The notes beneath the pieces are model-generated. The model had not been told where the DNA came from, searched no databases, and worked only from the letters and a program-made list of their open reading frames with translations. DNA of 20,374 nucleotides from IMG/VR virus record IMGVR_UViG_3300029305_004297. One strand, written 5' to 3'. Position numbers and translations under genes: made by a program. Of the stretch, positions 2,058 through 18,560 are shown in pieces. Each line of letters opens with the position of its first letter. The first letter of the stretch is position 1. The DNA is from a virus.

Positions 2058-2074
2058 AACAACACAAAATTAAT
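2058..2074 (+). repeat. conserved 17-nt intergenic motif, copy 1 (AACAACACAAAATTAAT)
   Basis: One of 10 near-identical + strand copies. Ends 1 nt before the RBS AAGGAG. Confidence 0.8.
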
Positions 2075-2090
2075 TAAGGAGAAAATTGTT

Positions 2091-2699
2091 GTGGGTAAAT
2101 ATCAGAAAAAAGTAAATCGCTTTTCTCAAATTCAAAAAGTAGCGATTTACGTCCTCATTTTTGCTATTGTAATTATGACTCCCGTTGTAAGGCAACGAGC
2201 AAAGTATGAAAAGCAAATTGCAGAAATTAATGCCAATCACGAAGCAGAGATGGTTGCTCTTCGTGCGGAATTACAGAGCGATTATGAATCCAAAGTCGCT
2301 GAACTTGAACAATACTATGAATACGGTGGAGATGTCACTCAGATTGAACGAGAGGCGGAGTATATCGCCAAGGTTATTTATGGTACTGCTCGCAATCATG
2401 TGGATGCCGATAAGAAAGCAGTTGTGTGGTGTATCTTAAATCGAGTTGAACATTATGCCCACCCTGACACTATTGCAGAAGTTTGCGAACAGCCCAAGCA
2501 GTGGATGGGCTACTCTAATGATAATCCCGTTCTAACTGAGAATTATGATTTGGCACTAGCCGAATTAAAAACTTGGTATAATGATGGTCATCGTCCCATG
2601 AGTAGCGACTACATTTATTTGTCTTGGTCTTCCAAGGAAATTCTATTGCGAGATACTTTTGAAGAAAACAAGAACACCCATTATTGGCGCATGAGATAA
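2091..2699 (+). CDS. membrane-anchored SleB-like cell wall hydrolase (Hydrolase_2 family)
   Basis: GTG start 9 nt after AAGGAG. N-terminal hydrophobic helix VAIYVLIFAIVIMTPVV. The C-terminal region AKVIYGTARNHVDADKKAVVWCILNRVEHYAHPDTIAEVCEQPKQW resembles the SleB/CwlJ cell-wall hydrolase core (ArvvyaEarge...vaavilNRv......tI..V..qp.qf). Confidence 0.55.
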   Translation: MGKYQKKVNRFSQIQKVAIYVLIFAIVIMTPVVRQRAKYEKQIAEINANHEAEMVALRAELQSDYESKVAELEQYYEYGGDVTQIEREAEYIAKVIYGTARNHVDADKKAVVWCILNRVEHYAHPDTIAEVCEQPKQWMGYSNDNPVLTENYDLALAELKTWYNDGHRPMSSDYIYLSWSSKEILLRDTFEENKNTHYWRMR

Positions 2700-2719
2700 A
2701 AATACTCTTTCATAACCAC

Positions 2720-2747
2720 TTGACAAATCAAAAATTTATGATATAAT
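2720..2747 (+). promoter_or_regulatory. sigma-A type promoter (TTGACA-16-TATAAT, extended -10 TG)
   Basis: TTGACA 2720-2725, TGaTATAAT 2739-2747. Drives the monocistronic MVP-like gene. Confidence 0.65.
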
Positions 2748-2763
2748 ACAGACAGTCAAAAAC

Positions 2764-2780
2764 GACAATACAAAATTAAT
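2764..2780 (+). repeat. conserved 17-nt motif, copy 2 (GACAATACAAAATTAAT)
   Basis: Sits between the -10 element and the RBS AAAGGAG of the MVP-like gene. Confidence 0.8.
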
Positions 2781-2800
2781 ACAAAAAGGAGACAACAAAA

Positions 2801-17800: not shown

Positions 17801-18159
17801 TTATAACCAACAATCCTTTAAAAGAAGCCTATGATCTTATTGGTACTGAGTGGGATGATGTTCCAAGTGGCAACAAAGCAGTTGTGCCATGTGTTATTGT
17901 AGATATTAAGCGCAAGAAGGATAGAAACAATAACCAGTTTGCTTACTTGGACCTATGTATTAACGATAGAATTCTAGAAGCAACAATTTGGAGCAAGCAA
18001 CTCAAAGAGTATGCAGAGCTAATCAGTAAGGGTAGTTGCATTTGCATCCTTGGACGCAAAGAAGATGAACATTTATTTGTAGAGCGGGTAAAGCCATATC
18101 AGGTTTGGCTAAACAAAATTAAAAAGATCAAAGCAAAAGCAAATATTTATAACTATTAA
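14818..18159 (+). CDS. DNA polymerase III alpha subunit (DnaE/C-family replicative polymerase) with N-terminal PHP domain
   Basis: TTG start 10 nt after GGGGAG. PHP signature NLHVHSAQGSLLDS...ALSDHGTMHGF. Catalytic Asp pair LADFDWDIS. GYCKMDYLGLENLD matches the conserved K-MDFLGL finger motif. 1113 aa. Confidence 0.8.
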   Translation: MSFVNLHVHSAQGSLLDSILTIDQMVKYAVDNKQPAIALSDHGTMHGFVDQVELCNKNGIKPIVACEIYEVDNYLEKQDTKEYKQPRYHLLLIVKTQQGLKNLFKIVSESATTGFYGKPRISISWIKENNLGEGIICLTACQAGRVSRYLEAEKYKEAEDYVNLLKETFDYVSLEIQSHPTDQQLACNTLIYNFARYIKMPYVITTDAHMLSADQLDSHSIFVEIGEGREAGEIYAGCHLQNEKDIYKYLGNWNLDRVIQAGIDETIKITNMIDDDIDYGLGHGSITPVVDVPSEYVSHEEYLHHLVFQTFEEKFGWMSKEEQEIRRERLERELPVINALDYTDYFIMLYMIAKEADKRGLPRGYSRGSGANCLCLFMLNVTQVDSVRWALDFSRFANMGRIGSLADFDWDISKRRRKEIIEITEELFGKENVAPIATFNTLSTKVAIKDIGKVLNEKESSPYFGQIPYSVRDEVAKMIPTVKTLSDLGEAEEKDVLLRELIGKNEKLDAIHKQFPMWFKYVMDLEGLPKSRGRHASATLITPHPVIEHMPLCLDNDKNVMAQLEMHAAMDKLGYCKMDYLGLENLDIIDDALKNAGLTWDNVNINHLNIDDKKVFDEVYNSGNTIGIFQFESAEARSMSIAAHVDNIEDVIAVNASNRPGTKNSFPDYCKNKLHPESINSIHKDLDTLFKTTHSILLYQEDALHLFAYAGFPEEKQDVARRAIGKKKKDVMASLYEEFKNGLVEKQWSEKQIQEVWALLAKQAEYSFNRGHAVAYSLLSYLTAWLKVYYPVQFMTALLTAKSDRTEKLSVIINDCNRMGIQVLPPKINESKQSFMGNADKREILFGFGAVKGIGESVISKIIENQPYKSFDDYVTKVQDKTATIALIKANAFPTNSRMKLMQRYARSLYTCSEYKPVGTLPTKAKLLLDWDIDTAQYMIGRKVDKERVLEIYNTKKKAKFDEDQKIKLNRHMAEFKQKYAQNEFLWEFESLSMFITNNPLKEAYDLIGTEWDDVPSGNKAVVPCVIVDIKRKKDRNNNQFAYLDLCINDRILEATIWSKQLKEYAELISKGSCICILGRKEDEHLFVERVKPYQVWLNKIKKIKAKANIYNY

Positions 18160-18169
18160 TTGTAGAATC

Positions 18170-18190
18170 AAGAGGGCCAACCACCCTCTT
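18170..18190 (+). terminator. stem-loop, putative terminator overlapping the next promoter
   Basis: AAGAGGG-ccaacca-CCCTCTT. There is no T-run, and the 3' arm overlaps the -35 TTGACA, so this is a weaker call. Confidence 0.45.
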
Positions 18191-18217
18191 GACAATACGA
18201 AATTAATGTGATATAAT
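18189..18217 (+). promoter_or_regulatory. sigma-A type promoter (TTGACA-17-TATAAT)
   Basis: TTGACA 18189-18194, TATAAT 18212-18217. Conserved motif copy 9 is embedded in the -35 and spacer. Confidence 0.65.
18191..18207 (+). repeat. conserved 17-nt motif, copy 9 (GACAATACGAAATTAAT)
   Basis: Lies within the promoter spacer, in the same arrangement as copy 3. Confidence 0.75.
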
Positions 18218-18250
18218 ATACCAGAACTAATAAGAAAGGAAGTGACTACA

Positions 18251-18559
18251 ATGGAAGAACTAAACAACACCATTGAAGAACAGGAAGCGCCCACTATGAA
18301 TGACGATGAACTAAAGGGTGCAATTGAAGAGCAGCTATCTAAAATTCGCAGTCAGTCTATGATTCTAGGCTTTAGAGTGGCATGCTCTACAATTAGAGAT
18401 ATGATTAATAAATTTGAGAGCTCTCCTGGCAGCAAGTCCAATAATGATCATAAGCGTCTTATCAAGGAAATTAAGCAGTTTGTAGAAAAGGGACTAGCTC
18501 GCAAGATGAACGAAAACGGTGAGATTGAAGTTCCTGAATCTGAAACAGTACAAAATTAA
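18251..18559 (+). CDS. hypothetical small acidic protein
   Basis: ATG 18251 lies 8 nt after AAAGGAAG. The track's GTG 18242 overlaps the SD, so it is rejected. 102 aa with no recognisable domain. Confidence 0.5.
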   Translation: MEELNNTIEEQEAPTMNDDELKGAIEEQLSKIRSQSMILGFRVACSTIRDMINKFESSPGSKSNNDHKRLIKEIKQFVEKGLARKMNENGEIEVPESETVQN

Positions 18560-18560
18560 T
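18544..18560 (+). repeat. conserved 17-nt motif, copy 10 (AACAGTACAAAATTAAT)
   Basis: Here the motif encodes the C-terminal residues ETVQN plus the stop of the upstream gene, and ends at the RBS GGAGGG. Confidence 0.75.

Follow-up and report, generated by a model that had tools for sequence, protein, structure and literature searches.

Why does one 17-nucleotide (nt) sequence recur, always on the same strand, ahead of gene after gene in an uncultured phage? The question is raised by IMG/VR virus record IMGVR_UViG_3300029305_004297, a stretch of 20,374 nt that we analyzed at its full length and refer to as the window. An original prediction made from the letters alone had noted the repeat, and had listed an operator for a phage transcription regulator as the first of its candidate roles. 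That role emerges from our analysis as the best explanation, and it now has a named candidate, the MrpR family, and a known relative, SPBRE. We lean slightly towards reading the motif as an SPBRE-like operator, that is, an asymmetric 17-bp putative target of an MrpR/YopR-family phage repressor, arranged in a stoperator-like array. The case for an operator is built on the architecture of the sites, the relatedness of the phages, and the presence of the protein family, and not on sequence similarity.

A search of the whole window with AACAATACAAAATTAAT, allowing up to three mismatches, returned ten sites, all on the + strand and each with zero to two mismatches. These are the ten positions noted before, and their number is indeed beyond chance, with dinucleotide-preserving shuffles giving 0.40 expected copies and a maximum of 2. 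The set is sharply bounded, because no site has exactly three mismatches, only two have four (234 and 19572, both on the + strand and both within coding sequence), and the − strand holds no site at four mismatches or fewer. The first of these degenerate sites, TACAATACAACATTATG at 234–250, lies inside the end of the first open reading frame (ORF), ~35 nt before the next gene start, and may be a decaying or coding-constrained copy.

Half of the copies are tied to strong promoters. A scan of the window found exactly five sigma-A-type promoters that match the consensus at 12 of 12 positions, all on the + strand, and a motif copy is present at each of the five. As had been predicted, two copies are embedded in the promoter, where the GACA of the motif is part of the −35 box and the remainder fills the spacer. 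One of these, at 5255–5271, lies within the promoter at 5253–5281 (TTGACA-17-TATAAT) and follows an intrinsic terminator-like hairpin with a T run (5203–5235, + strand) that closes the unit of a gene for a protein resembling major vault protein (MVP). The other, GACAATACGAAATTAAT at 18191–18207, lies within the promoter at 18189–18217 (TTGACA-17-TATAAT with TG) and follows a hairpin at 18171–18189. The remaining three promoters, at 2016–2043, 2720–2747 and 13088–13115, are all TTGACA-16-TATAAT with TG, and their copies sit, again as described previously, between the −10 box and the ribosome-binding site, with −10-to-motif gaps of 14, 16 and 0 nt, respectively. These copies are AACAACACAAAATTAAT (one mismatch) at 2058–2074, directly 5′ of the Shine-Dalgarno (SD) sequence of gene 2091–2699; GACAATACAAAATTAAT at 2764–2780, 5′ of the SD of gene 2801–5188; and AACAGTACAAAATTAAT at 13116–13132, which abuts the −10 box and is 5′ of the SD of gene 13131–13634. 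Upstream of this last promoter, past the ligase gene, a G+C-rich, terminator-like hairpin at 13053–13076 on the + strand is followed by TTAATTT. No copy in the window stands alone after a terminator without a sigma-A promoter.

The five promoter-less copies in the window all lie between a stop codon and the next SD. The exact copy at 7056–7072 overlaps the TAA stop of the RecJ-like gene and precedes the SD of gene 7091–7516; AACAGAACAAAATTAAT at 9316–9332 overlaps the TAA of gene 8766–9317 and precedes the SD of gene 9349–9795; a second exact copy, at 10138–10154, overlaps the TAA of gene 9792–10139 and is followed by an SD with an ATG-TAA mini-ORF (10162–10185) and an HNH endonuclease gene; and AACAATACAAAAATAAT at 14783–14799 overlaps the TAA of the helicase gene and precedes the SD of the DnaE gene (14818–18159). 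In the fifth, AACAGTACAAAATTAAT at 18544–18560, a TAA internal to the motif (18557–18559) is the stop of gene 18251–18559, and the SD that follows serves the ThyX gene at 18559–19287. The statement that five copies begin with a TAA stop is thus correct for four, those at 7056, 10138 and 14783 (as TAACAATAC) and at 9316 (as TAACAGAAC). It does not apply to 18544, with its internal stop, or to 2058 and 13116, where a T precedes the motif yet no gene ends. Similarly, the claim that every gap longer than about 15 nt carries a copy is true of all nine gaps of at least 31 nt but not of the 16-nt gap 1151/1168, whose length depends on the start call and which has no copy; the 13-nt gap 8752/8766 is also without one. 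The region around the motif is predicted to be unstructured. Beyond the copy at 10138, positions 10155–10221 hold a strong SD (GAGGAGG) and then a start-stop ORF, ATG TAA (10180–10185), ahead of the HNH endonuclease gene at 10222–11136. A motif copy in one related locus (L036) is likewise trailed by an SD and ATG-TAA unit, which may be left over from a gene start that was displaced, or may serve to couple translation of the endonuclease.

Outside the window, the motif characterizes an entire clade of uncultured phages of ~100–170 kb with SPbeta-type genes (YonO-like RNA polymerase, YorK-like RecJ, and DnaE). No match emerged when the window at full length was compared by megablast with 50,697 phage records, and the best relative of its DnaE in a deposited phage, that of Clostridium phage Amboise, is 47% identical; the RecJ-like protein of the window shares 34% identity with SPbeta YorK (E 6e-91). 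An exact 16-mer of the motif is found in at least 120 IMG/VR stretches, many of them contigs of 100–170 kb with several copies each. The closest relatives of the window are contig 3300029305_001655, with 95% identity in DnaE, and the 158-kb contig 3300024269_000024, which encodes a YonO-like polymerase. Across contigs whose proteins are 30–50% different, the motif mostly keeps to zero to two mismatches over its 17 nt. In a sequence logo the information is limited to these 17 positions, with a weak T-rich flank on the 5′ side and the purine-rich SD on the 3′ side. Within the motif, C3 and C8 are invariant. The logo was made from loci retrieved with the motif and is biased by that retrieval, and further loci were fetched by protein homology instead.

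Genome-wide distribution and strand bias had been proposed as a check, and on the relatives the motif proved to be intergenic and sense-biased. Twenty-six loci of 13–22 kb anchored on the polymerase gene contain one to eight copies each at up to three mismatches, nearly all on the gene strand. In loci anchored on the terminase gene the ratio is 132 sense to 0 antisense, and the motif extends into the structural module. Co-directional gaps in 27 representative loci (569 kb), counted with an ad hoc ORF caller, contain 119 sense and 2 antisense copies; where these gaps exceed 16 nt, about one in three has a copy, a saturation below that of the window. In contig 3300045988_126550 the strand of the motif flips with gene direction between two divergent arms, and therefore the motif follows transcription and not the replication strand.

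To describe the copies by context, 257 non-redundant examples from the clade were sorted with ad hoc scripts. Twenty-eight are embedded in a sigma-A promoter, always in the register TT[GACAATACAAAATTAAT]NNNNTATAAT; another 51 have a sigma-A promoter upstream, at a −10-to-motif gap that peaks at 0 (16 cases) and at 9–17 nt; and 178 (~70%) have no sigma-A promoter. For the majority, an SD and a start codon come next, with 0–8 nt between motif end and SD in most copies, a distance from motif end to start codon that peaks at 17–18 nt, and a G as the next base after the motif in ~45%. In the window and in loci retrieved via RNA polymerase or MrpR homology, not via the motif, each of the 22 perfect sigma-A promoters (22/22) carries a copy at up to three mismatches, and the copies located by perfect or 11/12 promoters all start at or after the −35 box and never upstream of it. 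For the 16 copies that abut the −10 box the start site probably lies within the motif, and together with the 28 spacer-embedded copies these make up about one-fifth of clade copies that are not fully transcribable from their own promoter. The original prediction had leaned towards a role at the DNA level, and this lean is supported by this fraction, by the presence of inverted copies in promoters (see below), and by the copy at every perfect promoter. Its description of the motif as directly followed by a ribosome-binding site in every case is accurate for the window but not for the clade, where ~12% of copies (32 flagged by automated classification, a few of them doubtful) have a hairpin and T run directly 3′ and no gene. 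Units of stop codon, motif and intrinsic terminator occur at 13724–13790, with the hairpin at 13747–13773, and at 16948–17040 of locus L141, and at L125 13096, L136 13713, and L194 8379 and 12305; one site is followed by a motif-less sigma-A-like promoter, the other only by an SD and a 75-amino-acid gene. In the relatives, a few copies have no sigma-A promoter and are 70–140 nt away from the preceding gene, for the most part within intron-like sequence.

The known system that most resembles this arrangement is that of MrpR, the master repressor of SPbeta. Chromatin affinity purification sequencing (ChAP-seq) and electrophoretic mobility shift assays (EMSA) have shown that MrpR binds SPBRE, a 15-bp repeat found in about ten promoter regions including that of its own operon, yopM (PMC10516654). 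The protein has a tyrosine-recombinase fold and has lost recombinase activity. Eight SPBRE copies that we took from SPBc2 have the consensus ~ACAAATACAAA[AT]AATATGTATA and all point in the direction of the gene that follows. The yopV region reads TTGACA-17-TATAGT, 5 nt, SPBRE, and AGGAGA; at yonX and yopM the SD follows SPBRE directly; and at yonT the site overlaps the −35 region. The motif described here has the same layout, as an asymmetric A+T-rich repeat that is in sense with the downstream gene and lies over the −35 box or between a sigma-A −10 box and the SD, often touching the SD. Both systems are found in large phages with YonO, DnaE and RecJ-type genes, both have an MrpR-family gene in the clade, and both place a site in the promoter of the repressor operon (yopM in SPbeta and the mrpR-like promoter here). 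In the best ungapped alignment, motif and SPBRE share 13 of 18 positions, including ATACAAAA, a resemblance that we treat as a suggestive lead.

Searching with SPbeta YopR by phmmer identified homologs in four loci (L001, L034, L107 and L054). Pfam family PF22822 (MrpR_N_CB) matches those in L001, L034 and L054 above its cut-off (E 1e-14 to 3e-12), PF22823 (MrpR_C_cat) is borderline, and the MrpR-like proteins of the clade match YopR in BLASTP at E 1e-13. On inspection by eye, an HxxR...Y catalytic box seems to be lacking from their C-terminal part, and a canonical integrase gene lies just upstream of the mrpR-like gene. The mrpR-like gene of L034 lies at 5700–6599. Another homolog is encoded, at 5933–6859 of L297, by contig 3300029305_001655, the close relative of the window with the 95% identical DnaE. 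More distant MrpR-like clades (21–26% identity) are without the window motif and have other sense-strand repeats at equivalent positions, which is compatible with, though not proof of, a co-evolving repressor–operator pair. In one of these loci, L304, the repeat TAAAACAAAACCATTAAAA occurs before SDs and inside a promoter (2718, 8905, 14638, 15504, 19242 and 20423), and in another, L308, a conserved spacer CTGT[TA]A..AATAAATTTTAT occupies TTGA[CT]A promoters (2457, 10926, 13974, 16103 and 20204).

Antisense copies of the motif are rare, and each one that we located is within or beside a sigma-A-type promoter, in most cases that of a lysogeny gene. In L001, L034 and L107 and in an independent contig from a metagenome-assembled genome (MAG), L203, an inverted copy occupies the spacer of the promoter that serves the mrpR-like gene itself, with TTGACT-aaATTAATATTGTATTG-TATAAT as an example. 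L203 has one more inverted copy in the spacer of another promoter, located 3′ of the mrpR-like gene, and in L020 and the homologous gene of L097 an inverted copy lies between the −10 box and the SD of a gene for a tyrosine integrase of 380 amino acids with intact catalytic motifs. In L001, L034, L107 and L203 a sense copy is found within ~45 nt past the mrpR-like stop codon, where a roadblock would prevent transcription of the repressor gene from reaching the next genes. The pattern of inverted copies fits a DNA-binding protein that acts in an orientation-dependent way, as L5-type stoperators do (PMC9283540), and not a promoter or an RNA element. L203 itself is USJD01000001.1, a contig of 147,435 bp binned as 'uncultured Prevotella sp.', which has the MrpR-like gene and the motif as well as promoters and SDs of the Firmicutes consensus type; probably it represents an entire phage genome from the motif clade, mis-binned into a Bacteroidota MAG.

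How would such an array work? In the proposed mechanism, the repressor gene lies elsewhere in the genome, beyond the window, and its MrpR-like product would be the protein that binds the motif. Copies over the −35 box and spacer, or 0–16 nt past the −10 box, would keep the host polymerase from initiating or from leaving the promoter. Promoter-less sense copies, both those in stop-to-SD gaps and those before terminators, would block elongation once bound and so act as orientation-dependent roadblocks, like the stoperators of mycobacteriophages. All sites together would silence lytic genes during lysogeny, or turn them off at set times. Under this reading the phage would be temperate, and the window's own genome would presumably carry an mrpR-like gene.

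The operator model accounts for the coupling at 22 of 22 promoters, the allowed offsets, the untranscribable copies, the inverted copies, the SPBRE-like layout, and the MrpR homolog. Several observations weigh against it. The similarity between motif and SPBRE is not significant by column shuffling (p ~0.09 by column correlation and p 0.75 with a log-odds position weight matrix). In SPbeta the ~10 SPBRE copies are all at promoters, whereas most copies here are promoter-less, some precede terminators, the structural module is included, and copies at lysogeny genes are inverted. The model also requires an array far denser than that of SPbeta, with ~10 copies per 20 kb in the window compared with ~10 per 134 kb. 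In the window's sub-clade the spacer of the mrpR-like promoter differs, with only a degenerate motif-like sequence upstream and no clear inverted copy. Bacterial genomes searched with the MrpR-like gene for prophages yielded no prophage and only the one 147-kb MAG contig. The model explains two features less well. The unit of motif and terminator is conserved after the polymerase operon across sub-clades, where a repressor site is not obviously useful; by synteny it lies at the position of the SPbeta YonO promoter, and a simple operator model leaves it unexplained. Further, the copies in apparent introns just 5′ of endonuclease ORFs would be more natural as expression signals.

These last features bring in the polymerase. 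YonO is a single-polypeptide DNA-dependent RNA polymerase that transcribes the SPbeta late operon from one start site with a promoter sequence that is unknown, and it pauses little and is without a flap domain (PMC5467207). Motif-bearing contigs of the clade, seen among the relatives and not within the window, encode a protein of ~950 amino acids with a GFDFDGD motif (9986–12832 in L141), which matches the Pfam RdRP family above cut-off (E 8.5e-7) and SPBc2 yonO in tblastn (E 4e-19), and whose closest relatives in isolates are those of Clostridium phage c-st and Enterocloster phages. A regular-expression search of the ORFs of the clade for T7-type polymerase motifs found none. Loci in which the polymerase is 41–48% identical have no copy of the motif at two mismatches or fewer, with L161 as the sole exception, and a search near the polymerase gene in these clades for an analogous repeat turned up nothing beyond homologous positions that recur from locus to locus and loosely defined A+T-rich words. 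In L193, where the polymerase is 41% identical, three tandem ACAATAGACGAATTG at 2967–3035, ~24 nt apart, may be an operator variant; AACAATAGAC is also found immediately 5′ of the SPBRE upstream of SPbeta yonP. The YonO-like gene is itself interrupted in L121 (11975–12150) and L127 (~12000–12150), and in L024 and L027, which overlap them. There it ends after ...QQEEID and is followed by ~137 nt of structured-looking sequence and then by a motif copy and a new ORF, an arrangement that looks like a group I intron with a homing endonuclease gene; the gene is uninterrupted in L048, L091 and L141. Intron-like sequences with promoter-embedded motif copies are also seen in the structural module (L205 18477, L218 16655 and L224 16931).

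Could the motif instead be the promoter of this polymerase? The original prediction had suggested a promoter element for a phage-modified RNA polymerase, which needs another wording but survives as a live rival in that the clade encodes its own YonO-like enzyme, including in the 158-kb contig related to the window. The 17 bp would then cover approximately −17 to −1 with the start at the next base, host promoters would serve early and phage promoters later, and a processive polymerase without a flap might pass hairpin terminators, a view consistent with the sparse pausing of YonO (PMC5467207). The motif is contiguous, highly conserved, sense-oriented and gene-proximal, as T7-type promoters are, it lies 5′ of endonuclease ORFs in apparent introns, and its unit with a terminator after the polymerase operon corresponds by synteny to the SPbeta YonO promoter site upstream of yonK/yonJ. 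One L141 gene, at 17041, has motif and terminator upstream and no evident sigma-A promoter. However, YonO of SPbeta uses one promoter for a single late operon (PMC5467207), and the SPBRE-bearing early genes are not among the reported YonO-dependent structural and lysis genes (PMC5467207, PMC10516654). When the yonN–yonK region of SPbeta, which holds the mapped YonO start, was scanned for the motif, the best sites had 4–5 mismatches and none was convincing, and the clades with 41–48% identical polymerases have no comparable repeat near the polymerase gene. Acting as YonO promoters, the inverted copies at the promoters of the mrpR-like and integrase genes would drive antisense transcription; an independent promoter would not need coupling to sigma-A promoters at 22 of 22, nor the absence of copies upstream of the −35 box; and a promoter 0–8 nt from an SD or directly before a terminator would be unusual. 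We therefore judge this explanation unlikely, though serious. The same low probability attaches to its wider form, in which the motif is the first promoter consensus of a YonO-type ('two-barrel') polymerase, used ~80 times per genome, paired with sigma-A promoters and aided by hairpin read-through by the phage enzyme, or else has a dual operator/promoter use. In the dual version, which is possible, the same 17 bp would be both an MrpR-like operator and a phage promoter, and occupancy by the repressor would pick the polymerase for each gene.

Two other explanations take the motif away from both DNA-binding proteins. If it acted in mRNA, as a RegA-like translational repressor or enhancer site 5′ of the SD or as an endonucleolytic processing site between cistrons, this would suit its constant sense orientation, its place 0–8 nt before the SD in most copies with the start-codon peak at 17–18 nt, its exact filling of stop-to-SD gaps, and the predicted lack of structure around it. 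Yet about one-fifth of copies precede or span the start site of the promoter to which they belong, promoters contain conserved inverted copies, ~12% of copies precede a terminator and not a gene, and the coupling to sigma-A promoters has no rationale at the RNA level. Rfam covariance models applied to the whole window at gathering thresholds gave no match, and we regard a role in RNA as improbable. Still less credible, and in our view very improbable, is that the motif has no regulator of its own and is a passive or recombinational boundary, part of a mobile regulatory cassette spread with gene cassettes and homing endonuclease genes. The clade is mosaic, and the motif does border numerous small genes as well as endonuclease genes and apparent introns, and the units of motif and terminator could be deletion scars. 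But its conservation across contigs with 30–50% protein divergence implies direct selection on the sequence, and the precise promoter register and the inverted copies at lysogeny genes argue for a function. Other element types were considered and rejected. The AR9-type late promoter, AACA-N6-TW, does not fit in its spacing, and MotA boxes, Q-binding sites, Chi-like sites, and primase, nicking and RNase III sites do not fit a 17-bp A+T-rich, non-palindromic, intergenic-only and promoter-coupled motif.

If the motif is an operator, as we favor, it can be compared with other arrays. In cluster A mycobacteriophages, repressors of the L5 gp71 type bind stoperators, asymmetric 13-bp sites in short intergenic spaces whose orientation is tied to transcription and whose effect is orientation-dependent (PMC9283540). 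The system described here is similar in having many asymmetric, transcription-oriented sites in promoters and short intergenic gaps (10:0 in the window, 119:2 and 132:0 in the relatives). Cluster A genomes are ~50 kb in length, and their more than 20 sites per genome, about one per 2 kb, compare with 10 in 20 kb here. In contrast, the phages and hosts are unrelated, the stoperator is 13 bp long and not 17, and the L5-type repressor is a monomer with helix-turn-helix and stoperator domains, unlike the tyrosine-recombinase fold of the candidate here. The two systems are at most functional analogues. Cluster K mycobacteriophages have another repeated element, the start-associated sequence (SAS), which Pope et al. 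in 2011 reportedly described as a short conserved sequence just 5′ of many start codons, in sense only and of unresolved function. The SAS contains the ribosome-binding site, whereas the motif here ends before the SD and is also found in promoters and before terminators. Promoters of the T7 class and of YonO are like the motif in being contiguous over ~17 bp, near-invariant, one-stranded and intergenic in a phage that encodes the polymerase; they are unlike it in that inverted copies and sigma-A coupling occur here, T7-type polymerase motifs were not found, and SPbeta uses one YonO promoter.

The genes that the ten copies accompany form a co-directional phage module for replication and nucleotide metabolism. 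The window encodes PNK/HD, Thg1-like, MVP-like, RecJ-like, macro-domain, PARP-domain and YqeY proteins and an HNH endonuclease, together with an NAD ligase, a superfamily 1 (SF1) helicase, DnaE, ThyX, and a kinase. Some of this content (the MVP-like, macro/PARP and PNK/HD/Thg1-like genes) is unusual for a phage replication module. Gene 2801–5188 encodes a protein of 795 amino acids with the shoulder/repeat domains of major vault protein and an SPFH domain, the macro-domain and PARP-domain genes lie side by side at 7091–8752, and the PNK/HD and Thg1-like genes form a pair at 255–2007, which suggests RNA or tRNA repair.

Arrays of repressor operators are already known, both as SPBRE with MrpR and as stoperators. 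What would be new, if the operator reading is true, is an MrpR-type system whose sites are as dense as stoperators and are inverted at lysogeny genes, found in a clade of uncultured gut phages. Should the motif instead be a promoter for the YonO-like enzyme, it would be the long-missing promoter of the YonO-type polymerases. In practical terms the 17-mer is a simple marker that identifies the clade, orients transcription units and predicts lytic promoters, and the inverted copies at integrase and repressor genes lead to a testable prediction on orientation-dependent silencing. As an operator, the motif would bring two silencing schemes together in one clade, that of MrpR and SPBRE, so far found only in Bacillus SPbeta with about ten sites, and that of stoperators, dense and orientation-dependent, which has so far been seen only in actinobacteriophages, where the repressor is unrelated. 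Such a pairing in these abundant uncultured gut phages of 100–170 kb would suggest that genome-wide transcriptional roadblocks evolved convergently.

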